Source: Minisyncoccota bacterium (GTDB lineage: Bacteria > Patescibacteriota > Minisyncoccia > Phycocordibacterales > UBA9973). Taken from it: a stretch of DNA of 64,000 nucleotides. Location of the stretch: assembly GCA_041664465.1 (NCBI GenBank), contig JBAYKP010000002.1:21190-85189 (forward strand), read 5' to 3'. Both the position numbers and the translations under genes were made by a program. Every line of letters begins with the position of its first letter. Position 1 is the stretch's first letter. Shown piece by piece: positions 15,181 to 62,965 of this stretch. The notes beneath the pieces are model-generated. The model did no database searches. It was not told the DNA's origin and worked only from the letters and a program-made list of their open reading frames with translations.

Positions 15181-15182
15181 AA

Positions 15183-15208
15183 AAGACCTATTATTTAGGT
15201 CTTTTTTA
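15183..15208 (+). terminator. Rho-independent terminator after secY
   Basis: aagaccta ... taggtctt hairpin followed by a T-run. Confidence 0.6.
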
Positions 15209-15239
15209 ATATATTAGAATTTTAGTATATAATAGAAAG

Positions 15240-15836
15240 ATGATAAACAAACCACAAACATTTATATTTTATGGGATAGCAGGTTCGGGTAAGGGTACCC
15301 AAGTAAAACTTTTACAAAATGTTTTGAAAGCCAAAGATGGTATGGATACGGTATATGGAGCACCCGGCAATGAATTTAGAAAACTTGTTGAAAGTGGCAA
15401 TCTTACAGGGTCTACTCTGAAAGATGCTATGGAAGCGGGTCTTCTTTTGCCAGATTTTTTACCTAATACTGTTTTTGCTGATATTTTAATTTCTGAATTA
15501 ACAACAGATAAACATTTAATTGCAGATGGTTTCCCTCGTACAGTGGTTCAATCTGAAAATTTTGAGGAGATGATGAAATTTTATAATCGTGAGAATATAA
15601 AAGTTATTTATATAGAACTTAGCAAAGAAGAAGCAATAAAGAGAATGAAGATTCGTGCTAGACCAGATGATACTGATGAAGGAATTGCAAAAAGATTTGA
15701 TGAATATGTAAAAAATATTATTCCTTCTATGAATTATTTCAAAGATAAAGAGAATTATAAAATGTATATGATAAATGGAGAACAATCCATAGAAGATGTC
15801 CATAAAGAAATTATTACTAAATTAAACTTAATCTAA
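15240..15836 (+). CDS. adk: Adenylate kinase (short form)
   Basis: P-loop GIAGSGKGTQ. 198 aa. Confidence 0.85.
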   Translation: MINKPQTFIFYGIAGSGKGTQVKLLQNVLKAKDGMDTVYGAPGNEFRKLVESGNLTGSTLKDAMEAGLLLPDFLPNTVFADILISELTTDKHLIADGFPRTVVQSENFEEMMKFYNRENIKVIYIELSKEEAIKRMKIRARPDDTDEGIAKRFDEYVKNIIPSMNYFKDKENYKMYMINGEQSIEDVHKEIITKLNLI

Positions 15837-15840
15837 TTCA

Positions 15841-16539
15841 ATGCCAGAAACAAAAACAGAGAAAGAAACAATCGTGATATCGCTTGGGGGGTCTATTGTA
15901 GTACCGGATTTACCGAATGGAGAATTTGTAAAAGCTTTCAAAGAAATAATTTTACATTTTGTAGAAAAGGGTAAAAAGTTTGTAATAATCGTAGGTGGAG
16001 GCAAGACTTGCAGACGTTATAATGAAGCCTTAAGTAATGCCACAGAAGTTATCAATGAAGATCTGGATTGGCTTGGTATATATACTACTCGCCTCAATGC
16101 AGAACTTGTCAGACTTTCTTTTGGTAAAAAGGCGGCGGATAGAATTCTGATAGATCCAAGTATAATAAAAGATTTCAATGACGACGTCGTTATTGGTGCT
16201 GGGTGGAAGCCTGGGAATTCTACAGATGCAGTTGGGATTATGATTGCGAAGGAACTTGGTACAAAAAAGGTAGTTAATATTTCAAATATTGATTATATTT
16301 ATGATAGTGATCCGAAAATAAATGAGGATGCCAAGAAGTTTGAGAATATTTCATGGGCAGAATATCGTTCTTTTATATCTTCCGTTTGGAAGCCAGGTAT
16401 GAACACTCCTTTTGACCCTATTGCTTCAGAGAAAGCAGAGGAGGGAGGCATAGAAGTTGCTTTCATGTCAGGGCACAATCTAGAAAGTCTTGAGAATTAT
16501 CTAAAAGGAGAGCATTTTGTAGGAACAATCATAAAGTAA
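15841..16539 (+). CDS. pyrH: Amino-acid-kinase-fold protein, likely archaeal-type UMP kinase
   Basis: ISLGGSIV ... IIVGGGK pattern and 232 aa length. Function assigned by family resemblance only. Confidence 0.5.
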   Translation: MPETKTEKETIVISLGGSIVVPDLPNGEFVKAFKEIILHFVEKGKKFVIIVGGGKTCRRYNEALSNATEVINEDLDWLGIYTTRLNAELVRLSFGKKAADRILIDPSIIKDFNDDVVIGAGWKPGNSTDAVGIMIAKELGTKKVVNISNIDYIYDSDPKINEDAKKFENISWAEYRSFISSVWKPGMNTPFDPIASEKAEEGGIEVAFMSGHNLESLENYLKGEHFVGTIIK

Positions 16540-16613: not shown

Positions 16614-18362
16614 ATGGAATCACAAACTAAAGTGTGTCAAAATTGTAAGCTTAATTTCACAATTGAGCCAGATGATTTTTCATTTTACGAAAAGATAAAA
16701 GTCCCTCCACCAACTTGGTGCCCTTATTGTAGGTTTATACGTAAAATGACATTTATTAACGAGCGTTCTCTTTATAAAAGAGTTTGTGATAATTGTAGTC
16801 AGTCTATGATATCTATGTATAGCCCTGATATACCACTTCCTGTTTGGTGCAATAAATGTCATATAAGTGATACTTGGGACGGAACTATATATAGTAGAGA
16901 TTATGATTTCTCTAGAAATTTTTTTGAACAATATAAAAAATTAAAATATGATGTTCCTCATAGGGCGCTTGATCAAAACGAGCGAAATGGCGAAGGGTGT
17001 GAGTATTCCAATCTATGTTACACCAGTAAAAACATATATTTATCTTTTAATATTATTGGTTCTGAAAATCTTAAGTATTCGGCACATGCTTTTAAGAATA
17101 ATAAAAATTGTTTAGATTCACTTATTTTTAAAAATAATGATAGGGGGTATGAGCTTGTTCAGGCTATTTCTAATTACAACTCATCTTTTTTAATTGAAAG
17201 TGACCAATGTGTAGATTCACATTTCCTTTATGATTGTTCTAATTGTGTTAATTGTTGTTTATCTTCAAATCTTCGAAATAAAAGTTATTTTTTTCAAAAT
17301 CAACAGTTATCGCGTGAAGAATATAAAAAGGCAGTTATGGCGCTTAGACTTGAGACATATTCTGGGCAATTAAATACTAAGAATATTTTTATGCAAATAG
17401 CAAAAGATGCAATTCATAAATACGCGCATATAAAGAATTCAGTAGATGTTATTGGAGATTTTATTGAAAATTCAAAAAATATTTACCATTGCTATGGTCT
17501 TGTAGATGCTATAAATACTAAATATGTATTTTTTGCAGTAAATACAATTGTAGATTCTCAAGATGTAATATTTGCAGGAAAAGTAGAGGAGTGCTATGAG
17601 TTTACTCTTGGTGGTAGGGGAGCTAGTCGTGTAATTTTATCTTTTAGTTGTTCTGGGGGGTGCAAGGATCTATTCTATTGTGATTCGTGTATGAGTTGTT
17701 CAGATTGTTTTGGCTGTGTAGGGTTAAAAAAGAAACAGTATTATATTTTTAATAAACAATATAAGAAGGAAGAGTATTTTGAAATGGTTAAGAAAATTAA
17801 ACAACACATGAATGATATGCCTTATATAGATAAGATTGGTAGAATATATAGCTTTGGGGAATGTTTCCCTACAGAACTTTCTCCTTTTGCTTACAATGAA
17901 ACTCTTGCTTTTAAAGAGAATTTTATCTCAAAAGAAGAAGTAATCTCTTTGGGATATAAATGGAAAGAAATGGAATCAAAGTTATATACTCCAACACTTA
18001 AAACAGATTCTGTGCCAGAGAGTATTAATGATGCTCTAGACACTATTTGTAATGAGATTATTGAGTGTCCCAATCAAGGCAAAGTAGATACACAATGCAC
18101 TTCAGCTTATAAAATATTACCAGATGAGTTAGCATTTTATAGACAAATGAATCTTCCAATACCTAGGTATTGTCCGAATTGTAGATATCACAATCGTTTA
18201 ATTTGGAAGAATCTTTTTCACTTTTACAAACGACAATGTATGTGTAATTCATCAAATCATAATCATAAAGGAAAATGTCAGAATGAATTTGAGACATTGT
18301 ATGCTCCCGACAGAGAAGAATTAATTTATTGTAAAGAATGTTATCAACAGGAAGTGTATTAA
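16614..18362 (+). CDS. Cysteine-rich paralog 1 (582 aa, about 37 Cys), unknown family. Has N- and C-terminal CPxCR zinc-ribbon-like modules and internal CxxCxxC clusters.
   Basis: Shares an N-terminal CQNCKxxFTIEPDDFSFYEKIKVPPPTWCPxCR block, a central KHMNDMPYIDKxGRIYxxGExFPxELSPFAYNET block and a C-terminal CQNEFETxYAPDRxExxYCxxCYQ block with the ORFs at 18401 and 29308. Confidence 0.7.
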   Translation: MESQTKVCQNCKLNFTIEPDDFSFYEKIKVPPPTWCPYCRFIRKMTFINERSLYKRVCDNCSQSMISMYSPDIPLPVWCNKCHISDTWDGTIYSRDYDFSRNFFEQYKKLKYDVPHRALDQNERNGEGCEYSNLCYTSKNIYLSFNIIGSENLKYSAHAFKNNKNCLDSLIFKNNDRGYELVQAISNYNSSFLIESDQCVDSHFLYDCSNCVNCCLSSNLRNKSYFFQNQQLSREEYKKAVMALRLETYSGQLNTKNIFMQIAKDAIHKYAHIKNSVDVIGDFIENSKNIYHCYGLVDAINTKYVFFAVNTIVDSQDVIFAGKVEECYEFTLGGRGASRVILSFSCSGGCKDLFYCDSCMSCSDCFGCVGLKKKQYYIFNKQYKKEEYFEMVKKIKQHMNDMPYIDKIGRIYSFGECFPTELSPFAYNETLAFKENFISKEEVISLGYKWKEMESKLYTPTLKTDSVPESINDALDTICNEIIECPNQGKVDTQCTSAYKILPDELAFYRQMNLPIPRYCPNCRYHNRLIWKNLFHFYKRQCMCNSSNHNHKGKCQNEFETLYAPDREELIYCKECYQQEVY

Positions 18363-18400: not shown

Positions 18401-20170
18401 ATGGATTATAAACCAGAAAATAGAATATGTCAGAATTGTAAGAAAGACTTCACTATTGAGCCAGACGATTTTTCATTTTATGAGAAGATGAAAGTCCCTC
18501 CGCCAACTTGGTGTCCTGAATGTCGTTTTCAAAGAAGGTGTCTTTTCCGTAACGAAAGAAAACTTTTCCGAAATATAGATGGAGTTACTGGTAAGCCAAT
18601 ATTTTCACTTTTTCCATTGGAGGCACATTTTCCAATTTATGAAGATAGTTATTGGGCAAGTGATAATTGGGACCCATTTTCTTATGGGATGGACTTTGAT
18701 AGGTCACGACCATTTTTAGCCCAACTCTTAGAGTTGAATTCAAAGGTACCACGTCCTCGCTCTGATGCTATAAATATGGTAAGAAGTGAATATTCTGCAA
18801 ATGCTGCAGACTTAAAAGATTGTTATTTGATTTTTAATTCAAGCTATACAGAAGATTCAGCATATGGAAATGCCAATGATTATTGCAAAAATTGCTTTGA
18901 TAATTCTCATATTCAAAATTCAGAGAAATGTTATGAATCATTTTGGCTTACTAAATGTTATGATACACATTTTTCTTCACAATGCGAGGATTGTGTTTCA
19001 GTTTGGTTTAGTAAAAATTGTCGTGGATGTACGGATTGTTTTGGCTGTGTAAACTTAACAAATAAATCTCATTGCTTTTTCAATCAATCTTTATCAAAAG
19101 AAGAATACAAAGAAAAGATAAAATCACTTGATTTTTCAAAATGGTCAAATCTCGAAAGAATAAAAAAACAAGTTGGAAAAATATGGTTGAATTTTCCTGT
19201 TAGATATCTTCAAGGTATTAAAAATTATTTATCTGATGGCGAATATGTTGCTTATTCAAAAAATGTTCGTCATAGCTACTTAGTTCGAGGGGGAGAAAAT
19301 CTTGCCTATGTGCAATATGTTCAAGTTCCATCATTAAAAGATTCTATGGATGTTATTGTGGGTGGTTGTAATAGTGAGTTAGTATATGAATCTTCAGCTT
19401 GTGGTTGGGATTCTTCACAAATTCGTTTTAGTATTGAGTGTTGGGACGGGGGAATGGATTTTGAATACAGTATGTTTTGTGGAAAGAAAGCCAGTCATAC
19501 ATTTGGTAGTATTAGTATTTGTAGTGGGGAATATGTTATTTTAAATAAAAGATATTCCAAAGAAGAATTTTATAAACTTAGAGATGAAATACGTAAGCAT
19601 ATGGATGAAATGCCATATATAGATAAAAATGGACGTATTTATAAATATGGCGAATTTCTTCCACCTGAGTTTTCCCCTTTTGCATACAACGATACGATAA
19701 CTCCGGAACATTTTCCTTTATCAAAAGAAGAAATAATCTCCTATGGTGCCAATTGGTATGAGATACCAAAAGTTGATTATGAAACAACAATGAAAGCCAA
19801 AGATATACAGGATGATATAAATGATGTATCGGAAGGTATTTTAAAAGAGATTATTTCTTGTGATAAATGTAATCGTGCTTATAGAATAATTCCTTCCGAA
19901 TTACAATTTTTAAAACAAAACCATATTCCAGTTCCTCGTAGTTGTGTGAATTGTCGTCATGATTTACGTATTTCACAAAGAAATAAAAGTAAACTGTATA
20001 AAAGAAAATGTAATTGTAATGGGAACAATTCAACAAATAATAAATATAAAAATGAAATCAGACATTCCCATGACACCGAAGCTTGCCAAAACGAATTTGA
20101 AACATCTTACTCCCCAGATAGACCAGAGATAGTGTATTGCGAAAAGTGCTATCAGCAAGAAATTTATTGA
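18401..20170 (+). CDS. Cysteine-rich paralog 2 (589 aa), same unknown family
   Basis: Conserved N-terminal, central and C-terminal blocks with 16614 and 29308. Confidence 0.7.
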   Translation: MDYKPENRICQNCKKDFTIEPDDFSFYEKMKVPPPTWCPECRFQRRCLFRNERKLFRNIDGVTGKPIFSLFPLEAHFPIYEDSYWASDNWDPFSYGMDFDRSRPFLAQLLELNSKVPRPRSDAINMVRSEYSANAADLKDCYLIFNSSYTEDSAYGNANDYCKNCFDNSHIQNSEKCYESFWLTKCYDTHFSSQCEDCVSVWFSKNCRGCTDCFGCVNLTNKSHCFFNQSLSKEEYKEKIKSLDFSKWSNLERIKKQVGKIWLNFPVRYLQGIKNYLSDGEYVAYSKNVRHSYLVRGGENLAYVQYVQVPSLKDSMDVIVGGCNSELVYESSACGWDSSQIRFSIECWDGGMDFEYSMFCGKKASHTFGSISICSGEYVILNKRYSKEEFYKLRDEIRKHMDEMPYIDKNGRIYKYGEFLPPEFSPFAYNDTITPEHFPLSKEEIISYGANWYEIPKVDYETTMKAKDIQDDINDVSEGILKEIISCDKCNRAYRIIPSELQFLKQNHIPVPRSCVNCRHDLRISQRNKSKLYKRKCNCNGNNSTNNKYKNEIRHSHDTEACQNEFETSYSPDRPEIVYCEKCYQQEIY

Positions 20171-20259: not shown

Positions 20260-21024
20260 ATGAATATCATTATAAAGACAAAAGAACAAATAGAGATTAT
20301 ACGAGAAGGGGGGAAGATTTTGGCGGAGGTATTGAAGAAGGTGGCTAAAAAAGTATCTCCGGGGATTTCGACATACGAACTTGATAAATATGCGTACGAT
20401 TTGATAAAAGAGAAGAGTGGAATCCCAGCATTTTTGAATTACAGGCCAGAAGGTGCACCGAAAGCTTTTCCTGCTTCTATATGTATATCAGTGAATAATG
20501 AAGTTGTTCATGGTATTCCTAGTAAGAATAAAATTTTGAAAGAAGGAGATATTGTCTCTCTTGATTTAGGACTCAAATACAAAGGGCTCTTCACTGACCA
20601 TGCTGTGACTGTGCCCGTGGGGAAGATTTCAAAGAAGGACCAGGATTTGCTCGATAAGACGAAGAAAGCCCTAGAAATAGGCATTTGGGCAGCTCGTGGA
20701 GGGGCTACAGTGGGTGACGTTGGTCACGCCATAGAATCATTTGTGAATAGGAAATATGGCATAGTTCGCGAGCTTTCAGGGCATGGTGTAGGGGTGAAAA
20801 TTCACGAAGATCCATATGTGCCGAACTATGGTAAAGCTGGTAAAGGGCAGAAATTAATTCCAGGAATGATTATAGCCATTGAGCCAATGCTAAATATTGG
20901 AAAGGACAATATAACTGTTGCCAATGATGATTGGACTATTAAAACAGCCGATGGCTCTCATTCTGCTCATTTTGAGCATACGATTCTCATTACCGAAGGT
21001 GACGCGGAAATATTAACTAAGTAA
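20260..21024 (+). CDS. map: Methionine aminopeptidase type I
   Basis: Metal-ligand pattern (D..D..H..E..E) and typical MAP-I sequence. The ORF-track start at 20203 adds 19 non-conserved residues. Confidence 0.88.
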   Translation: MNIIIKTKEQIEIIREGGKILAEVLKKVAKKVSPGISTYELDKYAYDLIKEKSGIPAFLNYRPEGAPKAFPASICISVNNEVVHGIPSKNKILKEGDIVSLDLGLKYKGLFTDHAVTVPVGKISKKDQDLLDKTKKALEIGIWAARGGATVGDVGHAIESFVNRKYGIVRELSGHGVGVKIHEDPYVPNYGKAGKGQKLIPGMIIAIEPMLNIGKDNITVANDDWTIKTADGSHSAHFEHTILITEGDAEILTK

Positions 21025-21146
21025 AAACACTCCATAAAAACATTCTCAGACTCACCACACAATAAAATTCTGCTGAATTTTTTGCTCGCACTCGGCCCGT
21101 CGGCCTGCGTGAGGGTTCGCTTGAGAACATTTTTTATTTCGTGTTT
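21023..21146 (+). repeat. Palindromic repeat element copy A (about 124 bp, starts inside the map stop codon)
   Basis: About 97% identical to 61522-61644. The core matches 31957-32040 and 48461-48542. Terminal arms aaaaacattctcagactcacc / ggttcgcttgagaacattttt are inverted repeats. Confidence 0.8.
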
Positions 21147-21180
21147 AATTAGCCCATATAGATTTTTTAGAATAGTCTCT

Positions 21181-21260
21181 GAGAAGGGGCCGGCGCAGGC
21201 TGTCGAGCCGAGCAATGAGCAAATTTCTAGCAAGAAATTATGTGATTCACCAGAATCACC
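21181..21260 (-). repeat. Diverged inverted copy A' of the same repeat core (head-to-head with copy A)
   Basis: The reverse complement contains tgctcggctcgacagcctg, identical to the copy C core, and a homologous cacataatttcttgctagaaattt segment. Confidence 0.6.
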
Positions 21261-21337
21261 TAAGGGCAGAAATATTCAGGAGAGCTATTCAAAAAATCTA
21301 GATACCAACATTTATAGATCATTTTTTCTTTTTCTTG

Positions 21338-21346
21338 TGGTATAAT
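21338..21346 (+). promoter_or_regulatory. Extended -10 (tggtataat) 6 nt upstream of the ATG at 21353
   Basis: Motif and spacing. Confidence 0.45.
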
Positions 21347-21352
21347 AAAACT

Positions 21353-24085
21353 ATGGAAGGATTAAATCTAAACAATGCTCCTAAATTTAAAACCCCAGAA
21401 GAAGAGTTGGTATTTTTGCGTGCTCACTTGGCTGAACATGAGAAGAAACTCAATGAAAAAGGGCAAGAAGTAAACAAAGAAGATATTGCTCACAATTTAA
21501 TCTCTGAATATAGAAAGCTTGAGCCGACAGATGTAATGCATAAAAGTGCCGTGATAAATAAAAATGAAGCTGAAGGCTTAGTCTTGCGATTAAAGCCTGA
21601 GAATCACGACAGTAAAATGGAAGAGCTTCTCGGTATTCTCTTGGATAAAGGTATTTCCAATACTCTTTCCATTGTGGCGAAGATGAATAATCCTCACCTA
21701 GATGATGACTTTCACCGTTTCCTTGTCCAGTATTTATACAGTACTCATAAAGTGCCGGGGCTTAAAGAAGGCACTCCTCTTTTCAAATCTCTTGATATGA
21801 AACTTTTCGAAATTACTCTGCCTGATGTCAGCGAAGATGATAAAGACAAGAAAGGTTTGAAAGAATTACTCTCTGCCATGGAGCAATTCTATGCTGGTAT
21901 GCATTCAGTCGGAGAAGGAAGAGAGAATTATAATAGAAATCATTTTACTTTAGAGATTGCCCTCGCTGAAGGGACGGACAGCTTCATCTTTTATGTCGCA
22001 GTACCTACTCACAAGGCAGAATTATTTGAAAAGCAATTACTTGGAGTTCATTTAAATGCGAAAATTACAGAAGTTCCTGATGATTATAATATTTTCTCTC
22101 CCAATGCATTTATCAGTGCCTCTTATGCAACCTTGGCTCATCACGAAGTCTATCCGATAAAGCTCTATGATACGATTGATCATGATCCACTCAATATAAT
22201 TCTAAATGTTTTCACTAAATTAAAAAAGCATGGAGAAGGTGCTTCTATTCAGTTCACTATTTGTCCGGAAGATGAAGATATTATCAGGAAGTTTCATATT
22301 ATCCATTCGGATGTGAAAAGTGGTATGTCTGTACGTACCGCTTCGAGTATGACTCGCCAAGTGACCAAGGAATTGAAAAATATAGCCAGCGAATTATTCT
22401 TCGGAGCTTCTAAAAAGAAAGAAGAGAAGCAAGTGAATGATAAAGCTGTGGAATATATTGGAGAGAAGTTGAAGAGTACCATAATGGCTACCAATATTCG
22501 TATCATCGCTTCAGCTGAATCGCAATTACGCTCAGAGCAAATATTATCTGAAATAGAATCTTCTTTCAATCAATTCACCGAAGCCGATCGCAATGGGTTT
22601 AACTTTAATCATCCTAAGGGGGGCTCACTTATGAATCTCATTCACGATTTTTCTTATAGAACATTTTCAGATGATTATTCTATGCCACTTAATCTTAAGG
22701 AGCTTGCTACTATTTTCCACTTTCCGAATAGCATTGTATCTTCACAGCTCAAGCAGGCTAAGGCCGGCTTTGCCCCAGCCCCACTTGAAATGGGCAATGA
22801 AGGAATTCTACTTGGTATCAATAGTTTCAGGGGCAAAGATACAGAGGTACGAATGAGTCGCGAAGACAGACTCCGTCATATGTATGTCATTGGTCAGACG
22901 GGTACAGGTAAGACGACAATATTGAAAAATATGATTGCCCAAGATATCAAGAATGGCGATGGCTGTTGCTTTATCGATCCACACGGTAGTGATATCCAGG
23001 ATATACTTTCTTATGTGCCCAAAGAAAGAATTGACGATGTCATTTACTTTGACCCTGCTTATACTGCTCGTCCGATGGGGCTTAATATGCTCGAGTATGA
23101 TCCGAAATATCCCGAGCAGAAGACTTTCGTCGTGAACGAATTGATGAGTATTTTCAATAAACTTTTTACGAAAGAATCTATGGGCCCTATGTTTGAGCAA
23201 TATTTTAAGAATAGTGCCTTCCTGGCAATGGATGATCCGAACAATCATGCCACTCTTCTAGACATCACTCGCATCTTAGGCAATAAAGAGTATAGAGATT
23301 CACTTTGTGAAAAATGTAAGAATCCTATTATCAAAGAATTTTGGGTTAATGCTGAGAAAACAACAGGGGACCAATCCATCGCCAACTTTGTACCATATAT
23401 TTCATCCAAATTTGATAACTTTATTTCCAACGATATAATGCGCCCTGTTGTTCTCCAAGAAAAATCTTCATTTAACTTCCGTGAAATAATGGACAATAAA
23501 AAGATTCTTCTGATAAACCTTTCAAAGGGAAGACTTGGAGATATCAATGCTAATCTCATTGGGCTTCTACTTGTGGGGAAGATTCAGATGGCAGCACTTT
23601 CTCGTGTAGATATGTATGGGCAAAAGATGAATGACTTCTATCTTTATATTGATGAATTCCAGAATGTGACGACTGATTCTATTGCCTCTATTCTTTCTGA
23701 GGCACGTAAGTATCGCTTGTCCTTAACTGTTGCTCACCAATATATTTCTCAGCTAGAAGAAAAAATAAAGGATGCTGTCTTCGGCAACGTCGGCTCGATG
23801 GCTGTCTATCGTATCAGCTCTGAAGATGCAGTCGCCGTAGAACCGAAATTCAAACCAACTTTCACCGCAGCGGATATTATGAAGCTTGATAATTTCAATT
23901 CATATGTGAGTATGCTTATAGGTGGAGTACCGACGAAGCCTTTCAGTATGACTTCCCATTGGAGTCTCACTCCCAAAGGCAACACTGAGATAGTAGATAA
24001 AATAAAAGAATTATCATATCTCAAATACGGCCGTCTCCGCGAAGAGGTAGAAGAGGAAATAATGAATAAATACAGAAAAGAATAA
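21353..24085 (+). CDS. VirB4/VirD4-superfamily (type IV secretion-type) P-loop ATPase with a roughly 480 aa N-terminal domain of unknown function
   Basis: Walker A GQTGTGKTT followed by IDPHGS, Walker B LYIDEF and a C-terminal AHQYISQL motif, all typical of TraC/VirB4/TraG-like ATPases. No N-terminal TM segment. The ORF-track TTG start at 21335 is replaced by the ATG at 21353. Confidence 0.55.
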   Translation: MEGLNLNNAPKFKTPEEELVFLRAHLAEHEKKLNEKGQEVNKEDIAHNLISEYRKLEPTDVMHKSAVINKNEAEGLVLRLKPENHDSKMEELLGILLDKGISNTLSIVAKMNNPHLDDDFHRFLVQYLYSTHKVPGLKEGTPLFKSLDMKLFEITLPDVSEDDKDKKGLKELLSAMEQFYAGMHSVGEGRENYNRNHFTLEIALAEGTDSFIFYVAVPTHKAELFEKQLLGVHLNAKITEVPDDYNIFSPNAFISASYATLAHHEVYPIKLYDTIDHDPLNIILNVFTKLKKHGEGASIQFTICPEDEDIIRKFHIIHSDVKSGMSVRTASSMTRQVTKELKNIASELFFGASKKKEEKQVNDKAVEYIGEKLKSTIMATNIRIIASAESQLRSEQILSEIESSFNQFTEADRNGFNFNHPKGGSLMNLIHDFSYRTFSDDYSMPLNLKELATIFHFPNSIVSSQLKQAKAGFAPAPLEMGNEGILLGINSFRGKDTEVRMSREDRLRHMYVIGQTGTGKTTILKNMIAQDIKNGDGCCFIDPHGSDIQDILSYVPKERIDDVIYFDPAYTARPMGLNMLEYDPKYPEQKTFVVNELMSIFNKLFTKESMGPMFEQYFKNSAFLAMDDPNNHATLLDITRILGNKEYRDSLCEKCKNPIIKEFWVNAEKTTGDQSIANFVPYISSKFDNFISNDIMRPVVLQEKSSFNFREIMDNKKILLINLSKGRLGDINANLIGLLLVGKIQMAALSRVDMYGQKMNDFYLYIDEFQNVTTDSIASILSEARKYRLSLTVAHQYISQLEEKIKDAVFGNVGSMAVYRISSEDAVAVEPKFKPTFTAADIMKLDNFNSYVSMLIGGVPTKPFSMTSHWSLTPKGNTEIVDKIKELSYLKYGRLREEVEEEIMNKYRKE

Positions 24086-25445: not shown

Positions 25446-25726
25446 ATTAAGTATCTTTATTGAAATACTGTCAAAAGTGTGTTTTATTGGGAAAGTTGCT
25501 TGCTTTGGCCTCACTAACGCGTATACTTTAAGTAGGGTTATTTGAATTGTGTTACCTAGAACAATTTTTTAGGGGATTAAATAGTTTTGATATAGTGCTG
25601 TATACGTATTATGTTAACAAATCTCTATCATCCTTAATCCCACTTAGCGTTATGCTATGGTAATATACTTCGGATAGTCCTAATAAGAGATTCTTTCATA
25701 CTTTTGAAAGGATTTTTTGTTTTGAA

Positions 25727-25817
25727 TTCCTCCCCTCCTTACTAAGGAGGGGAATGAGGGGAGGTTCTTAATTAATTTACCTCTCCCCAGCCCTCCCCTT
25801 AGTAAGGGGAGGGGGAA
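25727..25817. other. GC-rich nested hairpins (cctcccctcc-ttactaa-ggagggg ...; ccctcccc-ttagtaa-ggggaggg) in an AT-rich spacer
   Basis: Read directly. Similar CCTCCCC/GGGGAGG hairpins occur at 2097-2116. Confidence 0.35.
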
Positions 25818-25859
25818 AATTCCATTTTAGTTTTTTATTATGTTATAATAAAAATATAT

Positions 25860-28430: not shown

Positions 28431-29231
28431 ATGGATAACGTTATAAAAGTATATAAAAAGGTAGGTGAGACGCCTCTAGATTGCATTCAAAATCTCAAAA
28501 AAGATAGGCCAGAACTGGGCCTTTTACCTATGACTTATGCAGGACGGCTTGATCCGTTAGCAGAAGGGGTGCTTTTACTCCTTGTAGGTGAGGAATGTAA
28601 GAAGAAAGATGAATATCTTAATCTACACAAAGAGTATGAGGTAGAAGTTCTCTTTGGTTTCGCGACGGATACATATGATGTATTGGGAAAAGTCACTCCG
28701 TCGGAAATACTATTTAAAAGGTCCAGGGACCTGGGGGACGGGAGCCGGTGCCAGACCATTTCAAATCGCTCATCCTTTGACTTCGTTTTGCCTCTAAAGA
28801 AGATCCTTCCAAATTTTATTGGCAAGATAAAACAATCATATCCACCGTATTCTTCTCGTCCAGTAAATGGCAAGCCGTTGTTTATGTGGGCGAGGGAAGG
28901 GAAGCTAGGTGAGATAGAGATACCTACGCACAATGTGCAAATAGATAATATAGAAATAATGGGGCAAGATTTTATAAAAGGAAATGAACTTTTGGAAAAT
29001 ATTAAAGATAAAATTTCAAAAGTGAAAGGTGATTTTAGACAAGAAGAAATATTAAAAACTTGGGAGAAAGAATTGAAAGACAAAAAAGAAGAAAAATATC
29101 CTATAATTAAATTAAGAATTTCTTGTGGCAGTGGGGCCTATATGCGAAGTATTGCCAATGACATAGGGGAGAAGCTAAGCATCCCCGCTCTTGCCCTCAA
29201 AATAGTCCGCACAAAAGTAGGAGATTACTAA
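28431..29231 (+). CDS. truB: tRNA pseudouridine synthase (TruB family) with an internal GC-rich insertion
   Basis: YAGRLDPLAEGVLLLLVGE motif. The ATG at 28431 is preferred. Confidence 0.65.
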   Translation: MDNVIKVYKKVGETPLDCIQNLKKDRPELGLLPMTYAGRLDPLAEGVLLLLVGEECKKKDEYLNLHKEYEVEVLFGFATDTYDVLGKVTPSEILFKRSRDLGDGSRCQTISNRSSFDFVLPLKKILPNFIGKIKQSYPPYSSRPVNGKPLFMWAREGKLGEIEIPTHNVQIDNIEIMGQDFIKGNELLENIKDKISKVKGDFRQEEILKTWEKELKDKKEEKYPIIKLRISCGSGAYMRSIANDIGEKLSIPALALKIVRTKVGDY

Positions 29232-29234
29232 ATT

Positions 29235-29279
29235 CCCCAGAACTTACGCTATAGCGTAAGTTCTGGGGAATTTGTTTTT
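29235..29279 (+). terminator. Terminator (15-bp stem ccccagaacttacgc-tata-gcgtaagttctgggg + T-run)
   Basis: Read directly. Confidence 0.8.
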
Positions 29280-29307: not shown

Positions 29308-31029
29308 ATGAAAAGTGAGACGAAAAACTGCCAGAATTGCAAAAAAGACTTTACTATTGAGCCAGATGATTTTTCTTTTTATGAGAAAATAAAAGTCCCT
29401 CCGCCAACCTTTTGCTCGGAATGTAGAATGATACGAAGGATGATTTGGAGAAATGAGAGGTCTTTTTATCATCGTAATTGTGATTTGTGTGGAGAAAAGA
29501 TAATTTCAGTTTTTGATGATAAAAATTTGAAAATTTATTGCCAGAATTGTTGGCTTAGTGATAAATGGGAATCTTTGGAATATGGAGTAAATTATGATTT
29601 CTCCGCATCATTTTTTTCTCAGTATTCAGGTTTATATAAAAATATACCACTAATAAATTTAAATGGGCATATTTCAAATAAAAACTCACCGTATGTAAAT
29701 TATATTGTTCAGGCTAATAATTGCTATTTTTGTTTTGGTGGAGGATATATAGAAAATGTTATGTTTTCTAATGTTGGGGTAAGAATAAAAGATTCAATGG
29801 AAATATTTTTCTCAATGGATTGTGAATTTTGTTATGAAATATTAAATTGTCAGAAATGTTATCGTATTTATTATGGAAATAATTTGAAAGACTGCATGGA
29901 TAGTTATTTTTTGCAGGACTGCGTGAATTGTAAGGACTGTATCATGTCCTGTAATTTAAGGAATAAATCTTATTGTTTTAAAAATCAACAATTAACTAAA
30001 GAAAAGTTTTTGGTCAAAAAAGAAGAATTTTTAAATAAACTACAGAAAAATATTTATTCTCTTAAAAATGAATTTAAGGAAGTATTGATTAAAAGTCCTA
30101 AAAAATTTGCCAATATTTTGAAATCAGAATTTTCTACAGGTGATAATATCTCTGAAAGTTCACGAGTGGTAAATAGTTTTAATATTTCTAAGAGTGAAAA
30201 TTGTAAAAATTCACAAGATATAGTTGGAGTTGCTCGTGATATCTACGATACAACAAGTGCTGGGTTAGGACTGGAAAATATGTATGAATCAATGTCTGTA
30301 AGTATGAATATTTTGAATTCATTTTTTTCTTTATCAATAAGAAATGATTCTTTTAATATAAATTATTCTTTTGGGTTAACTTCATGTTCCAACTGCTTCG
30401 CCTGCATCGGTCTCCGCTCCAAACAATACTGCATCCTCAACCGCCAATACACCAAAGAAGAATACGAGAGCCTTGTCCCCAAAATCATAAAGCATATGAA
30501 CGACATGCCCTATATAGATAGTAAAGGTAGAATCTACAAATACGGTGAATTCTTCCCAAGTGAACTCTCACCCTTTGCCTACAACGAAACCATAGCCCAA
30601 GAATACTTCCCATTAACAAAGGATGAAGCTCTACAACAAGGCTACAAATGGAAAGACAAGGAAGAACGTAACTACAGTATAGATATACATACAGAAAACA
30701 TCCCAGATTCCATTAAAGACATACCTGATACAGATATCCTAAACAAAGTCATAGAATGTAACCATAAAGGAACCTGTAATCAACAATGTACAGAAGCCTA
30801 TAAGATTATACCCGAAGAACTATCCTTCTACAGACGTATGAATTTACCTCTACCTCGTCTCTGTCCTAACTGTAGACACTATGAACGTCTTTCTCAACGA
30901 AACCCTATGAAATTATGGCATAGAGCCTGTATGAAGCCTGGATGTACCAATGAATTTGAGACATCTTATGCTCCAGAGAGACCGGAGATTGTTTATTGTG
31001 AGAAGTGTTATCAGGGGGAGGTGTATTAA
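29308..31029 (+). CDS. Cysteine-rich paralog 3 (573 aa), same unknown family as 16614 and 18401
   Basis: Same N-terminal, central and C-terminal conserved blocks. Confidence 0.7.
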   Translation: MKSETKNCQNCKKDFTIEPDDFSFYEKIKVPPPTFCSECRMIRRMIWRNERSFYHRNCDLCGEKIISVFDDKNLKIYCQNCWLSDKWESLEYGVNYDFSASFFSQYSGLYKNIPLINLNGHISNKNSPYVNYIVQANNCYFCFGGGYIENVMFSNVGVRIKDSMEIFFSMDCEFCYEILNCQKCYRIYYGNNLKDCMDSYFLQDCVNCKDCIMSCNLRNKSYCFKNQQLTKEKFLVKKEEFLNKLQKNIYSLKNEFKEVLIKSPKKFANILKSEFSTGDNISESSRVVNSFNISKSENCKNSQDIVGVARDIYDTTSAGLGLENMYESMSVSMNILNSFFSLSIRNDSFNINYSFGLTSCSNCFACIGLRSKQYCILNRQYTKEEYESLVPKIIKHMNDMPYIDSKGRIYKYGEFFPSELSPFAYNETIAQEYFPLTKDEALQQGYKWKDKEERNYSIDIHTENIPDSIKDIPDTDILNKVIECNHKGTCNQQCTEAYKIIPEELSFYRRMNLPLPRLCPNCRHYERLSQRNPMKLWHRACMKPGCTNEFETSYAPERPEIVYCEKCYQGEVY

Positions 31030-32489
31030 AATATTACTTTCTTTGCTTCCTCAAATAATTCATCTATTCTTTCTTGAGTTTTTGCTTCACCGAAGAGTTT
31101 AATTATTGGTTCTGTATTTGAAGGACGAAGGTGGAGCCAAGAACTATCCGGTAAGTCTAGGCGTAGGCCATCTTGTTCATCATATGTAGCATCTTTAAAA
31201 TGCTCTTTCAATTTAATGTACATTTGTTTTAGGTCAGAGCCCAATGGCCATTTATCTTTCTTTATTATATATTTTGGCAATTCTTCCATCAGTTCACTTA
31301 TAGTTTTATTTCTCTCTGCCATAAGTTCAAGGATTAAAGCAAGTCCCGTAAAACTATCACGGACTGTATTTATAATAGGGTAGATTATTCCACCATTTCC
31401 TTCACCTCCAACTATTGCATTATGAGCTAGTATTCCTTCTACGACGAATCCTTCGCCAATTTTAGTTCGGAATGTTTCACTTCCATATTTTTTAGCTACA
31501 TCAGCTCCTCTTTGTGAAGTAGAAAGATTAAGCACTATAGGCTTACCTGGATGTTTTGATATCACATTTTCTATTACCAATGCTATAGAATTTTCTTCTG
31601 ACTCCACAATTCCTTTATCACTTACCAATACCAGCCTATCAGCATCAGGATCATGGACGAAGCCTACATCTACTTTTTTTTCAACAACTAATTTTTCTAT
31701 ATCGCCTAGATTCTCACGAAGAGGCTCTGGTCTGTGCCCGAATTTACCATTAGGGATATTGTTTAAGGGATATACTTCTACTCCTAGTTGTTCAAATAAA
31801 TAAGGATCCATCACACAAGCTGAAGCATTGATCATATCAACAGCTACTTTGAATTTCTTAGCACGGATTACTTCTACATTTATATTTTCTAATATTTTAT
31901 CAGCATGTTCTTTGAGAAAGTTTGGTGTAATGTTAGATGGATTTTCGCTCGACTCATTATTCCCGTCAGCACGCGATAAAATTCTACTGAATTTTTCGCT
32001 AGTGCTCGGCTCGACAGCCTGTGCAATGCTTCCTGGAACAATGAGTTCTCGCTCAAATCCATCCCGTTCGAATTTCTTAATTTCTTCTTCATAATATTTA
32101 TTTATCCTTTCTACTTCTTCATTTACAGTGAAAAGAGCTTTATCATTTACAAATTTGAGGCCGTTATATTCTATTGGGTTATGACTTGCGGTAATTATTA
32201 TAGCTCCATCATATCCGTGTTTACGAACAGAGAATAGAACTGTCGGCGTTGGAAGTATATCTCCATATACTGCTTCTACTCCCAGATTTTTTAATTCATT
32301 TAGAATTATTTCTCTTATCTCAGGTCCAGACTCACGACCATCTCTGCCAATTAAAATAGTAGGATGTTCCTTTTTTTCTTTTAAAAATGAAACGAAAGCA
32401 CGCGTATATAAAATAACCACCTCTTTACTAAGTGATTCACCCCAGATACCTCTATATCCAGAGACATTAATTCTTTGTTTAAATTCCAT
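31026..32489 (-). CDS. Phosphohexomutase (phosphoglucosamine mutase / phosphomannomutase family) carrying an in-frame repeat-element insertion
   Basis: GAIIITASHNP (active Ser), DPDADR, GGEGNGG and RPSNTEP motifs. The inserted peptide GSIAQAVEPSTSEKFSRILSRADGN is encoded by the repeat at 31951-32047. The ATG at 32489 is preferred over 32546. Confidence 0.8.
   Translation of the reverse strand: MEFKQRINVSGYRGIWGESLSKEVVILYTRAFVSFLKEKKEHPTILIGRDGRESGPEIREIILNELKNLGVEAVYGDILPTPTVLFSVRKHGYDGAIIITASHNPIEYNGLKFVNDKALFTVNEEVERINKYYEEEIKKFERDGFERELIVPGSIAQAVEPSTSEKFSRILSRADGNNESSENPSNITPNFLKEHADKILENINVEVIRAKKFKVAVDMINASACVMDPYLFEQLGVEVYPLNNIPNGKFGHRPEPLRENLGDIEKLVVEKKVDVGFVHDPDADRLVLVSDKGIVESEENSIALVIENVISKHPGKPIVLNLSTSQRGADVAKKYGSETFRTKIGEGFVVEGILAHNAIVGGEGNGGIIYPIINTVRDSFTGLALILELMAERNKTISELMEELPKYIIKKDKWPLGSDLKQMYIKLKEHFKDATYDEQDGLRLDLPDSSWLHLRPSNTEPIIKLFGEAKTQERIDELFEEAKKVIF
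31951..32047 (+). repeat. Palindromic repeat element copy C, in-frame inside the phosphohexomutase gene
   Basis: The core attcccgtcagcacgcgataaaattct..ctgaatttttcgctagt..ctcgg...gcttcctggaaca is shared with 48461-48542. Flanked by inverted gactcatt / aatgagt. Confidence 0.8.
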
Positions 32490-32526
32490 TCCTTTATAAT
32501 ACCAGTTTTTGAGGAATGAGGGAATA

Positions 32527-32952
32527 TTATTGAAAACTAATTTCAAATGGATACATTCCCATACCGCAGGAGCCGTTTAGGGTGCCGGCTGGTTGTGTAC
32601 TGAGGTCTATATCTGTACTTCCTGATTGTGGGAGACTTTTAAAGATATTCATAGAAGGAATTCTGACAGAAGAAGAGCAATCAAAAGTTCCATTTGTGTT
32701 AAATCTTAAAATTGTAGGAATTCCTGCCTTTGCAATACTTTTCCTTGGTTGGTAACCACCTTTAGCATTTATCTCTATAATTTGTTTACCATCTACTACC
32801 GAAACATTCTTTATAGAAGTTTCTTGTGTTGTTCCAGTACTATTATTACTAGAATCATTTGATTGATTACTTGTTTTTCCACTCGTAAGAACAATAGCAA
32901 ATATAATTAATGCCGCTGATACTACTATTGAGATGATTGTGTTTTTTGTCAT
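32527..32952 (-). CDS. Cupredoxin-like domain membrane-anchored protein
   Basis: C-terminal GSCGMGMYPFEI resembles the cupredoxin-like Y-x-C-x3-H/x-x2-M motif. Paralog of 44140-44499. Confidence 0.45.
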   Translation of the reverse strand: MTKNTIISIVVSAALIIFAIVLTSGKTSNQSNDSSNNSTGTTQETSIKNVSVVDGKQIIEINAKGGYQPRKSIAKAGIPTILRFNTNGTFDCSSSVRIPSMNIFKSLPQSGSTDIDLSTQPAGTLNGSCGMGMYPFEISFQ

Positions 32953-34015: not shown

Positions 34016-34061
34016 AAAAAAATACCTTTTACAATTAAGTATTTATCTACATAAAATATTA

Positions 34062-34086
34062 TATACCCCCTAGGGGTATATGTCAA
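34062..34086 (-). promoter_or_regulatory. CsoR-type operator palindrome (tatacccc-cta-ggggtata) lying between ttgaca (-35) and an AT-rich -10 on the minus strand
   Basis: Near-identical palindromes at 34782-34806 and 44792-44818. Resembles the published Bacillus CsoR operator (TACCC...GGGGTA). Confidence 0.6.
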
Positions 34087-34722: not shown

Positions 34723-34781
34723 ATAATTTACTTTTGTTTATTTTTATAATAAATACAGTCCGACAAACTTATATAATATTA

Positions 34782-34806
34782 TATACCCCTAGGGGGTATG
34801 TGTCAA
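34782..34806 (-). promoter_or_regulatory. CsoR-type operator palindrome (tatacccc-ta-gggggtat) + ttgaca -35 upstream of the SHOCT/DUF302 pair
   Basis: As for 34062. Confidence 0.6.
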
Positions 34807-44781: not shown

Positions 44782-44791
44782 ATAAAACATC

Positions 44792-44818
44792 TTATACCCT
44801 AGGGGGGTATAAGTCAAG
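44792..44818 (-). promoter_or_regulatory. CsoR-type operator palindrome (ttataccc-ta-ggggggtataa) + ttgac on the gene strand, 11 nt upstream of the csoR ATG
   Basis: Same palindrome as at 34062 and 34782. Sits in the -35/-10 spacer position. Confidence 0.65.
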
Positions 44819-47706: not shown

Positions 47707-47742
47707 CTGCCCAGATAGGGGTTAAACCCCTATCTGGGCAGT
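47707..47742 (+). terminator. Long hairpin ctgcccagataggggtt-aa-acccctatctgggcag after ftsH
   Basis: Read directly. Core identical to the hairpin at 18368-18390. Confidence 0.5.
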
Positions 47743-47785
47743 TGCTTATTAGACACTTTTTCGGTAATATATGAGTGTTGGATAT

Positions 47786-47863: not shown

Positions 47864-50167
47864 TTATTCAAAATGCAATTTTAGGTTTTTGTCGGTGAGA
47901 GTTTTCGAGAGGAGAGGGGAGGATTTGAGATATACATCAGAAGTGATCATTTTGATGGCTTCGGTACGGGCGGCTTCCACCATTTTTATATTCTTTATAG
48001 CTTCCATTCCGAGGTCGGTGATGCCCCATTGTTTATCGCCAGAGAGAAGTCCTGCTCCGCGGAGTGTTAGATCAAGCTCTGCCAATTCAAATCCATTAGC
48101 TGCTTTGGTTAAGGCTTTTAATCTGTCTATTGTTTTGTCACTCTTAGCATCGGCAAACAAATAACAATATGACTGGTATGTGGAGCGGATAACTCGTCCA
48201 CGAAGCTGATGAAGCTGTGCGAGGCCAAATCTCTCTGCTCCTTCTATTATGATGACTGTGGCATTAGGGACGTTTACCCCTACTTCTATTACAGAAGTAG
48301 AAACGAGAATATCTATTTTCTTTTCAGCGAAATCTTTCATCACTTTCTCTTTCTTCTCTTTGCTCATTTTACTGTGCATGATATCTATATTGTAATTTGG
48401 GAAGATATCTTTTTTCAGTCTTTTTGCTTCTGAGGTAACGGCTCGTAGGTCGGACAGAGTATTCCCGTCAGCACGCGATAAAATTCTGCTGAATTTTTCG
48501 CTAGTACTCGGCCCGTCGGCCTCCGTAATGCTTCCTGGAACACTCTGTCCGACCTCCTCGCCTTTCCCTAAAACACTTTCTCCGAGCTCCTCTCCGATTT
48601 TCGGACAAATTACATAAAGCTGTCTACCAGCTTCTAATTCCTTTTTAATTTTCTCATAAGAACTTTCTCTTTTATTCTCTGGCACAATTTCTGTAATGAC
48701 TTGTTTACGTCCCGCGGGCATCTCATCAATGATGCTTAAGTCCAAGTCTCCGTATATAGTGAGAGCGAGAGTACGGGGAATGGGAGTAGCAGTCATAGAG
48801 AGGTAGTGCGGTGCGTGGCCGTGCTTCTTCACTAGTTTCATTCTTTGATTCGTGCCAAAGCGGTGCTGTTCATCTATTATGACTAATCCTAAATCTTTGA
48901 ATTCTACAGATTTTGATATGAGTGCATGAGTGCCTATCACTATCGGTATCTCACCATTTTTAATCCATTTCAAAAGTTGATTTTTAGATATAGTGGTCCA
49001 AGTTTTCACTTGTGTACCTTTCTCCCACGGAGCCGATTTACTTGGGAATTTACGGCATCCAGAGCCTGTCATAAGAGCGATAGAGATACCAGTGTGTTCA
49101 AAATACTGGATAAAATTCTCATAAAGTTGCGTTGCAAGTACTTCCGTCGGAGCCATATAAGCTACCTGTAAATTTCCATATTCTCCATACTGAGAAGTTC
49201 CGGTTGTGTTCTTGATTACAGCATAAGCGACAGTTGCTGCCACGAAAGTTTTCCCACTTCCTACGTCTCCTTCAATAAGACGAGACATTGGCTTATCTTT
49301 TATAAAGTCTTCTAGTATCGTATCTATCGCACTTGTTTGGGCCTTGGTCGGAGTAAAAGGGAAACGTCCAACGAAGTCAGTAATATCTTTGTGTGGAATT
49401 TTAAGTTTGTATGAAAAGTTTTCTTGATATTTCTTTTTTTCTTGTTGGCGAGAAAGTTGAATGAAAAACACTTCCTCAAAGGCAAATCTTTTGCGTGCTA
49501 TTTCGGCATGCTCTTTCTTAGCTGGCATGTGGACCCAGATCAAAGCTGTGTGTAAAGCGGGTAATTTGTAAGTATTTAATATTTCACTTGGGATATAATC
49601 TACTATATCTTTCACACAACCTTGCTTCAATATCTTCTGTATAGCATGATAGAACCATTTAGAAGTGATGCCACGACTTTCTCGATAAACAGGGAAGCCG
49701 AATTGCGTTTCCACTCCTTTATTACTCCAAAGTGAATCGTGAATATCTATCGGCAGGATATCTTCTTTATTTATTTCTGGATTTGTGAGAGTAGGGCCGT
49801 AAGTTTTACTATTTGTAACTTTTCCTGTCACTCGCACAGTTGAGCCTTCTTTAAGCATCTTTGCAAGGTATGGCTGATGGAACCAGATGATATTGATAGA
49901 GCCAGTCAAATCAGAAAGTACAGCCTGCCCCATTGGGATTTTACTTTTGAATCCCTTTTTAGTTTTAAGTCCTGTGAGTTTCCCTAAGATGGTGATGTTC
50001 TCACCTTCTGTTAGAGTATTGATATTTCTAACTTCACTTATATCACTATAACGAGAGGGGAAATGATAAAGTAGGTCTCTCAAAGTTTTGAGTCCAAGCA
50101 CTGATAACGCCTTTTTCTGATTTACATCAAGGCGAAAATGATTTTCAATTTTATCGGTTAGATTCAT
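47864..50167 (-). CDS. recG: ATP-dependent DNA helicase RecG carrying an in-frame repeat-element insertion
   Basis: GDVGSGKT, DEQHRFG, and wedge and helicase motifs. The inserted peptide VPGSITEADGPSTSEKFSRILSRADGN is encoded at 48447-48555. Confidence 0.9.
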   Translation of the reverse strand: MNLTDKIENHFRLDVNQKKALSVLGLKTLRDLLYHFPSRYSDISEVRNINTLTEGENITILGKLTGLKTKKGFKSKIPMGQAVLSDLTGSINIIWFHQPYLAKMLKEGSTVRVTGKVTNSKTYGPTLTNPEINKEDILPIDIHDSLWSNKGVETQFGFPVYRESRGITSKWFYHAIQKILKQGCVKDIVDYIPSEILNTYKLPALHTALIWVHMPAKKEHAEIARKRFAFEEVFFIQLSRQQEKKKYQENFSYKLKIPHKDITDFVGRFPFTPTKAQTSAIDTILEDFIKDKPMSRLIEGDVGSGKTFVAATVAYAVIKNTTGTSQYGEYGNLQVAYMAPTEVLATQLYENFIQYFEHTGISIALMTGSGCRKFPSKSAPWEKGTQVKTWTTISKNQLLKWIKNGEIPIVIGTHALISKSVEFKDLGLVIIDEQHRFGTNQRMKLVKKHGHAPHYLSMTATPIPRTLALTIYGDLDLSIIDEMPAGRKQVITEIVPENKRESSYEKIKKELEAGRQLYVICPKIGEELGESVLGKGEEVGQSVPGSITEADGPSTSEKFSRILSRADGNTLSDLRAVTSEAKRLKKDIFPNYNIDIMHSKMSKEKKEKVMKDFAEKKIDILVSTSVIEVGVNVPNATVIIIEGAERFGLAQLHQLRGRVIRSTYQSYCYLFADAKSDKTIDRLKALTKAANGFELAELDLTLRGAGLLSGDKQWGITDLGMEAIKNIKMVEAARTEAIKMITSDVYLKSSPLLSKTLTDKNLKLHFE
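48447..48555 (+). repeat. Palindromic repeat element copy D, in-frame inside recG, flanked by a perfect 14-bp inverted repeat (aggtcggacagagt / actctgtccgacct)
   Basis: The core at 48461-48542 matches copy C and the cores of copies A and B. Confidence 0.85.
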
Positions 50168-61523: not shown

Positions 61524-61644
61524 AAACACTCCATAAAAAAATTCTCGGACTCACCACACAATAAAATTCTGCTGAATTTTTTGCTCACACTCGGCCCGTC
61601 GGCCTGCGTGAGGGTTCGCTCGAGAACATTTTTATTTTGTGTTT
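61522..61644 (+). repeat. Palindromic repeat element copy B, wedged between the stop codons of two convergent genes
   Basis: About 97% identical to 21023-21146. Confidence 0.8.
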
Positions 61645-62877: not shown

Positions 62878-62965
62878 ACTCTTCCGTCCTTCGGACACTT
62901 TCCCTTCGCAGGGAAGGAAGAATTCCTCGCCCCCTGCGAAGGGGGAGATGCCGGAGGCAGAGGGG
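62878..62965 (-). other. GC-rich hairpin cluster (including a 6-bp stem ccccct capped by GCGA, agggg) between the comFC stop and the ATP-grasp start; candidate terminator or 5' leader structure
   Basis: Read directly. The ORF-track ORF 62699-62986 here is rejected. Confidence 0.35.

Follow-up and report, generated by a model that had tools for sequence, protein, structure and literature searches.

A dispersed palindromic repeat with a branched head, found between genes and in frame within genes of Patescibacteria

Several kinds of small palindromic repeats have been described in bacteria. RPE (Ogata et al. 2000) are palindromic repeats of Rickettsia that enter unrelated housekeeping genes in frame, according to the summary of them given in PMC10969869. 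REP and REPIN sequences are tagged by GTAG or CGTC and occur inside genes, notably DNA repair genes; REP units are single hairpins of 20-40 bp with an unpaired terminal tetranucleotide, they form head-to-head dimers of the same unit, and their proposed roles include termination and mRNA stabilisation (PMC3733652). The SPRITE, BOX, RUP and Correia repeats of Firmicutes and Neisseria are small, non-autonomous, structured and terminator-like, insert into one another and cluster (PMC10969869). Template switching between the arms of inverted repeats, for its part, is known from arm homogenisation and spacer inversion (PMC8604942) and from quasipalindrome mutagenesis (PMC7202029). Here, we analysed a stretch of 64,000 nucleotides from a Minisyncoccota bacterium (contig JBAYKP010000002.1, hereafter the 64-kb window) that contains five copies of one palindromic element, two in frame, in a phosphohexomutase and in RecG, and three intergenic. 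This element belongs to a dispersed family with covariation in all its helices and a wobble bias on the strand of its core, which is best placed among the REP/RPE-type palindromic repeats, as a new family.

The element measures about 130 bases. As a single strand, every copy adopts a Y shape in which a long stem (P1) carries a two-hairpin head, thus forming a three-way junction, with fold z-scores from -3.3 to -9 depending on the copy. The conserved core of 55-60 nt sits on P1. Hairpin P3 is G/C-rich with about 4 bp (GGCY-GACG-RGCC, loop GACG) and is joined by a nearly constant GAG to P2, which is A/U-rich with 7-10 bp, the loop AGCA and a bulged A. The sequence of P1 is locus-specific, yet kept paired. 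Indeed, across 39 copies the core is conserved at about 85-90%, and the outer stem, typically of 10-29 bp, is different at almost every locus with only 0-5 mismatches; in the copies examined, the inner stem bases beside the core are semi-conserved. In two host genes, those of the RecG protein P0136 (L120:1501-3867) and of the mutase P0021, the P3 hairpin loop of the Y element has another element nested in it, of about 100 nt and with the peptide QVRKR..ARPFE..QKVYCSCK.

An earlier note on this stretch had pointed to a hairpin at 31951-32047 in the mutase, with the flanks gactcatt and aatgagt. The bases are present (31951-31958 and 32040-32046, within the open reading frame (ORF) 31026-32546) and enclose a core encoding VPGSIAQAVEPSTSEKFSRILSRADGN, but the true palindrome of this copy (c2) is larger and spans 31935-32064 on the minus strand, the actcatt/aatgagt stem extending via two GA/GA internal loops to GGATGGATTT/AAATCCATCT. 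A GAGCGA direct repeat considered as a target-site duplication in c2 is actually this pair of internal loops, and was rejected as such. The minus strand folds at -60.9 kcal/mol (-47.7 for the plus strand) and scores 90.9 bits with the covariance model at 31955-32043; P2 lies at 31973-31999 on the same strand (GCGAAAAAUUC-AGUA-GAAUUUU-A-UCGC, with AGUA in place of the loop AGCA of nearly all other copies) and P3 at 32008-32019 (GGCU-GUCG-AGCC), followed by the invariant GAG. Fold, covariance model and Pfam place c2 in frame between PGM_PMM domains I and II of a GlmM-type enzyme, a phosphoglucosamine/phosphohexose mutase with Pfam domains PGM_PMM I-IV encoded on the minus strand. This ORF is 100% identical over 96% of the query to the database protein P0001, which begins at an internal Met (487 aa) and whose name refers to a metagenome-assembled genome of Candidatus Paceibacterota.

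The second coding copy, c3 (minus strand, 48439-48562, or 48433-48569 at its widest), is in frame in RecG (Pfam; ORF 47864-50167, minus strand), between the DEAD and Helicase_C lobes. Its flanks are aggtcggacagagt and actctgtccgacct, as reported earlier, and the complementary codons of its P1 arms specify EVGQS and TLSDL. At 48563-48595 of the minus strand lies a diverged tandem duplicate of its 5' stem arm (24/33 bases identical) without a partner arm; it resembles an arm variant found in locus L038 and may be the trace of recombination between two alleles of the element. As to the intergenic copies, c1 (minus strand, 21026-21145, or 21022-21145 at its widest) begins 2 nt past the TAA stop codon of an M24 methionine aminopeptidase gene and c4 (minus strand, 61524-61644, or 61521-61644 at its widest) lies between two convergent genes. 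These two copies (type A) are 95% identical over 118 nt, and the two coding copies (type B) 88% identical over 90 nt. The profile and the covariance model detected a diverged copy, c5 (about 21160-21299, plus strand), in the opposite orientation, with P2 altered to AAUUUCU-AGCA-AGAAAUU and an extra hairpin, which is orthologous to a copy in L026. Part of the flanks that had been quoted as inverted repeats for the intergenic copies does pair, but 'actcacc/ggttcgc' is not complementary. The core has the same orientation in c1, c2, c3 and c4. In these four full copies the minus strand, the one that codes for both enzymes, has a fold more stable by 7-14 kcal/mol than that of the plus strand, as its G.U pairs turn into mismatches there. 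For the 78-nt core pattern, 0 chance occurrences are expected. The c1/c5 pair stands directly upstream of a gene (21335-24085) for a 916-aa TrwB/TraG-like ATPase of the type IV coupling protein type.

Whether the outer stem is conserved as a structure rather than as a sequence, as had been proposed for this element, was examined by covariation on two sets of copies. The first comprises 34 copies from many genomes, selected by the core pattern, and the second 20 copies that were not selected by P2 sequence (metagenome loci ascertained through RecG, and loci of mutase orthologues). RNAalifold recovered the Y shape from the first set, with double (compensatory) changes at 18/29 pairs, including all 13 modelled P1 pairs; 91.3% of the cells form standard pairs, against 69% in column-shuffled alignments (0/500 shuffles as high) and 35-49% when partners are slid, and the covariation score is 0.554 (0.152 when shuffled). 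The second set gave double changes at 28/29 pairs, 90.6% of the cells in standard pairs (61% column-shuffled) and a score of 0.637 (0.187 shuffled). Its P2 is 99.5% paired with eight different stem sequences (AAAUCUC, AAAAUUC, AAAACCU, AAAAUCC, AAAUUUC, AUUUUUC, AAUUUUC and CUCCGCG), and the loop AGCA is constant in most copies with single-base variants in a few. Covariation over more copies, suggested as a check in the earlier note, is thus clear, and the outer stem is indeed kept as a structure.

Furthermore, the stems are asymmetric between strands. Read in the orientation of the core pattern, stem mismatches are A.C or C.A in 29 cases and T.G or G.T in 3 (about 20 versus 3 once related copies are collapsed), which indicates that the mismatches tolerated in the stem form G.U wobbles on the complement of the pattern, hereafter the core-sense strand. 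This strand folds better than its complement in 71/77 copies, by 7.4 kcal/mol on average. The bias goes with the direction of the core, whichever way the adjacent genes run: intergenic copies antisense to both neighbours show it, and a reversed mutase copy in L122 keeps it as well.

Like this element, REP sequences lie mostly just downstream of ORFs, form inverted pairs and occur in part within genes, including repair genes. The terminal tag of REP is however absent here: CGTC forms the loop of P3 on the opposite strand, and GTAG, confined to the canonical sub-family, is found in neither type A nor type B. P2 and P3 are unrelated, so that the element is no dimer of like units and a head-to-head REP dimer was rejected, and no RAYT transposase was found among 21 ORFs scanned against Pfam. 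Regarding ends of the type seen in miniature inverted-repeat transposable elements (MITE), type A copies in five genomes share TAAAACAC…GTGTTTTA, most other copies having stems specific to their locus. TA is present at both ends of type A copies, but it lies within the palindrome and is common in AT-rich DNA.

In-frame copies, which add a related peptide to unrelated proteins, were found in the mutase, RecG, MnmA and TsaD. The coding copies sit in permissive inter-domain loops and leave the frame of the host open. RecG was compared over 120 orthologous proteins (70-91% identical): about 65 are filled, with the element at exactly the same site, about 45 are empty (…DDEEKIKLDVKSV…), and the remaining groups have a different GC-rich palindrome at this site or short remnants. 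All of the 12 filled orthologues with DNA (12/12) keep the Y fold with a P1 of 19-24 bp, and the mRNA sense is always the more stable strand. One stem position reads GTC/GAC, ATC/GAT, TTC/GAA or CTC/GAG in different orthologues, and the protein covaries in consequence, with E-V/I/F/L-G on one side and S-D/D/E/E-L on the other. RecG lineages read the element in two sense frames (…GSITEADGPSTSEKFSRILSRADGN… and …EGLLSSTERKLSKFSAENLRTRESN…). The same mutase loop bears the element in many orthologues, in some of them in reverse orientation (P0022, confirmed in L122, and P0055, by a matching peptide). The copies of MnmA are antisense in L001 and L011 and sense in L028, all in the same inter-domain linker, and those of TsaD were found in L015 and L017. 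Since frames and orientations vary and 3/6 reading frames through the core are open, the peptide appears as a by-product, and what is conserved is the nucleic-acid fold together with an open frame.

A second, unrelated family of GC-rich palindromes (CCCCTCC…GGAGGGG) was observed in the window, where it is intergenic (about 2026-2136, 25726-25830 and 62880-62960). Elsewhere, it occupies exactly the same loops of RecG (L053, L061) and of the mutases P0031, P0046, P0048 and P0056, and inside these proteins it is translated as DPLRPSGTSPLAGGG or SPLL..EEG.GGG…GTPPLKGG.

These features recall RPE, which, in the summary cited above, are likewise multicopy, of about 100-150 bp and stably folded, lie in frame in unrelated housekeeping genes at permissive sites as well as between genes, and yield a peptide as by-product. 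The host phylum is different, and the likeness is one of description. Moreover, the conserved part of our element is the small three-way-junction head on a long, locus-specific and covarying stem, copies at one site occur in several frames and in both orientations, and cores are exchanged between loci. A conserved three-way-junction head, a covarying locus-specific stem and a fold long maintained within coding sequence differ from what the known families display.

Presence of the element is patchy and is accompanied by deletion remnants, flips, nesting and exchange of cores between loci. As the neighbour-joining tree of RecG is too comb-like to place gains and losses, nearest-neighbour identities were used. 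Filled and empty RecG proteins are up to 97% identical outside the loop (P0137 versus P0158; 88% for the DNA), and at least five types of remnants (GEGEEVGDLK, EGEEVGDLK, EEIGQNIGTLSDLK, SLSELR and EDGDEISDLK) each occur beside filled relatives. At the DNA level, the remnants of P0141 (GAGATCGGACAG-AATATTGGTA-CTGTCCGATCTC, in which inner-stem bases specific to the element are retained) and P0138 (GAGGTC-GGC-GACCTC) are stems without a core. Because they group with filled genes and the inner-stem bases are kept, these palindromic "empty" sites are deletion remnants and not virgin targets. The empty mutase site of P0012, an orthologue 79% identical (about 80% for the DNA), has no palindrome (minimum free energy -4.9 kcal/mol), and the empty type of RecG is non-palindromic as well. 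The idea, raised earlier, of insertion into pre-existing palindromes therefore fails for sites within genes, where it was rejected; it may still apply to intergenic copies, because ordinary terminators here are perfect hairpins of 18-20 bp.

The filled allele of the window and the empty allele of P0012 differ over about 150 nt, with no clean insertion. Compared with the mutase of L121 (65% identical), the DNA of the window mutase is 50-75% identical and reaches 97% across the element. The core of the window mutase shares 94% identity with a TsaD core and with that of the L121 mutase, and only 74% with the orthologous core of L123, which is itself 94% identical to RecG cores of other genomes. 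Copies of one genome also tend to share a P2 variant (4/5 in the window, 2/2 in L040). Core variants that do not track the host gene, the 97% identity across the element and these shared P2 variants argue for copy-and-paste or gene conversion, both between loci and between orthologous sites.

In the set of species-representative genomes, the degenerate core pattern identified 35 loci, 34 of them in genomes titled as lineages of the candidate phyla radiation (CPR) or as unclassified bacteria and one in a genome titled Saccharibacteria; the titles comprise Nomurabacteria, Yanofskybacteria, Taylorbacteria, Paceibacterota, Minisyncoccia, the Parcubacteria and Patescibacteria groups, several unclassified bacteria and this one Saccharibacteria. 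The covariance model yielded 52 matches in 342 kb of related loci. The element was not matched in viral contigs, phage records or plasmids. With Rfam 15 at gathering thresholds, only tmRNA and tRNAs pass in the window and the element falls in no family, and in permissive Rfam scans, run on c1/c5, c3 and a copy linked to a tRNA, no match to the element exceeded 21 bits, ribozymes included. The tmRNA gene confirms that this DNA is bacterial. A 45-column alignment of the shared peptide had no match in a set of 5.8 billion proteins, a search that is uninformative since the window's own mutase is in this set. No description of such an element was found in the literature on palindromic or MITE-type elements of CPR/Patescibacteria.

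Between genes, where 45/52 model matches of the first set are located, copies typically lie 10-60 nt past a stop codon, and often as adjacent pairs in opposite orientation. They are preceded by A5 tracts on the 5' side in 51% of cases and followed by T5 tracts on the 3' side in 38% (background 14%), which gives them the look of bidirectional terminators; the simple terminator/promoter consensus scanner cannot score branched hairpins. Copies within ORFs cannot be terminators. Ordinary terminator-like hairpins are also present in the window (29229-29275 and 47707-47745), with perfect stems that are unusually long (18-20 bp) and framed by A/T tracts. Small size, strong secondary structure, likeness to rho-independent terminators and nesting in one another are shared with SPRITE, BOX, RUP and Correia. 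These families nonetheless have conserved terminal inverted repeats and, for several of them, TA target duplications and known parent families of insertion sequences.

On this basis, the element is probably a copy of a multicopy, non-coding palindromic repeat family of Patescibacteria/CPR, of the same general kind as REP and RPE and spread by copy-and-paste. It would spread as DNA between loci and between orthologous sites, by gene conversion or homologous recombination and possibly with an enzyme acting on the folded strand. Between genes (within A/T tracts, 10-60 nt past stops and just past tRNA-Ile and tmRNA), it could serve as, or mimic, a bidirectional terminator or a 3'-end structure, and within genes its peptide would be a tolerated by-product. 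The folded strand may be RNA or DNA; we infer the route of movement, the terminator activity and any benefit for the host from the comparisons above.

Complementarity of the stem arms may be upheld by intrastrand template switching, by selection acting on the folded strand, or by both. The note had offered selection for a hairpin or cruciform as one reading: the stem is indeed kept paired, but this is one of two explanations, as template switching at the DNA level also fits. In favour of selection on the folded strand are the wobble bias, the conserved loops and the copies linked to tRNA and tmRNA, together with the tandem G.A loops and the unpaired bases rich in purines. Template switching homogenises arms and inverts spacers, and would thus account for arms that are complementary yet diverging and for the flipped cores at the same site in MnmA and the mutase. 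It is nevertheless a mutational process and not a family of elements, and leaves the conserved loops and the strand-specific wobble bias unexplained.

Several observations weigh against the reading that we favour. Among the 21 ORFs scanned with Pfam, none is a transposase or another gene for mobilisation, nor did any clear target-site duplication emerge. The loops and the junction are conserved across deep lineages, which resembles purifying selection on a function more than plain selfish DNA, and the same can be said of the persistence of the structure in dozens of RecG orthologues. Intergenic copies are oriented without bias with respect to the protein genes around them (20 versus 23), which is hard to fit with a strand-specific RNA role, and yet the wobble asymmetry follows the core. 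Finally, many copies have no U tracts, which leaves the terminator role a putative one.

A bolder proposal, which we put forward tentatively and do not favour, is that the Y core is an undescribed functional motif of CPR, whose AGCA and GACG loops, in RNA or in one folded DNA strand, are read by a lineage-specific factor, and which persists in essential genes and spreads among orthologous sites in a homing-like manner without an endonuclease of its own. If so, the codons on either side of the insert would be forced to be reverse complements of each other in essential genes. A homing element of the intein or intron type was itself rejected: no separate ORF lies in the element, the insert of about 30 aa is far below the size of an intein or homing-endonuclease domain, and the frame is open in all orthologues.

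It is rather doubtful that the element is primarily a structured RNA module with a function, selected at the level of the host, copied to several places in the genome and dual-coded in mRNAs, with mobility being secondary; candidate roles would be a signal for protein binding or RNase processing, a 3'-end stabiliser or a terminator. Such a module would agree with the conservation of the AGCA loop, the GAG junction and the bulged A while every helix covaries, with the concentration of G.U wobbles, tandem G.A internal loops and purine-rich unpaired bases on one strand, and with the RecG copies, which are all mRNA-sense and keep their fold across orthologues 71-91% identical. It would also agree with a sub-family with a longer P2 (GGGGUCGCGAG…) that lies co-oriented 25-70 nt downstream of tRNA-Ile(UAU) and tmRNA in several genomes (L051:12187-12375; L052:12467-12654; L060:12230-12421 and 15676-16213; L067:18666-19200; L071:6097-6611; L074:12290-12470 and 14919-15451). 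The 5' stem arm of these copies shares bases with the 3' arm of the terminator hairpin before them, and the two pairings are consequently mutually exclusive. On the other hand, orientation is random with respect to flanking protein genes, MnmA copies and some mutase copies are antisense to the mRNA and still display the core-sense asymmetry, presence is patchy among close orthologues with the core often deleted, and no Rfam family matches.

Another possibility, which we regard as improbable, is that the mobile unit consists of the core and a short inner stem only and inserts in the loops of existing hairpins such as terminators, the outer stems being target DNA. The perfect 18-20 bp terminator hairpins with A/T tracts in the window would offer such targets, the contrast between a semi-conserved inner stem and a locus-specific outer stem would be expected, other elements are nested in the P3 loop, and three copies of one genome (L003, L013 and L022) share a core variant on different stems. 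However, the orthologous empty sites of the mutase and RecG are non-palindromic, and the site of c1/c5 is only an 8-nt spacer between the M24 peptidase gene and the TrwB/TraG-like ATPase gene in L121. Moreover, type A copies and those of L008, L018 and L030 have the same P1 at different loci, so that the stem moves with the core, and orthologous stems diverge in place by compensated substitutions. Lastly, an intervening sequence cut from the mRNA (bulge-helix-bulge or IRE1/RtcB-type), leaving a protein without the insert, is very improbable and was rejected, as none of the orthologues interrupts the host frame across the insert, although it is read in several frames and in either orientation, and most copies are intergenic; the weak match that hints at it, to the bZIP Hac1/Xbp1 intron model (19.4 bits, E 0.31, P2 loop and closing pair reading CAGCAG), is far under the gathering threshold of 41, has a second loop off consensus and is regarded as chance.

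The genomes of CPR bacteria are tiny and thought to hold little repetitive DNA. Even so, a structured and abundant repeat is present in them and extends into essential genes, and it may be a major source of terminators and of protein length variation in CPR. The RecG insert offers a natural case of nucleic-acid structure dictating protein sequence, the V/I/F/L of one side covarying with the D/D/E/E of the other. The element is also a marker of recombination between lineages and a candidate for a new recognition motif in RNA or single-stranded DNA. Such inserts also matter for annotation, as they add to protein lengths and give rise to "signature" peptides that are spuriously family-specific.

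Two other features of the window were noted. Three paralogous ORFs of about 580 aa (16614-18362, 18401-20170 and 29308-31029) are CxxC-rich with conserved C-termini, and neither 16614-18362 nor 29308-31029, the two compared with Pfam, gave a match. Finally, a 36-nt repeat, ATAAAATATTATATACCCCCTAGGGGTATATGTCAA, with a central palindrome is found at 34051-34086, 34771-34806 and 44782-44817, upstream of several minus-strand genes, and may be an operator or a promoter-associated site.

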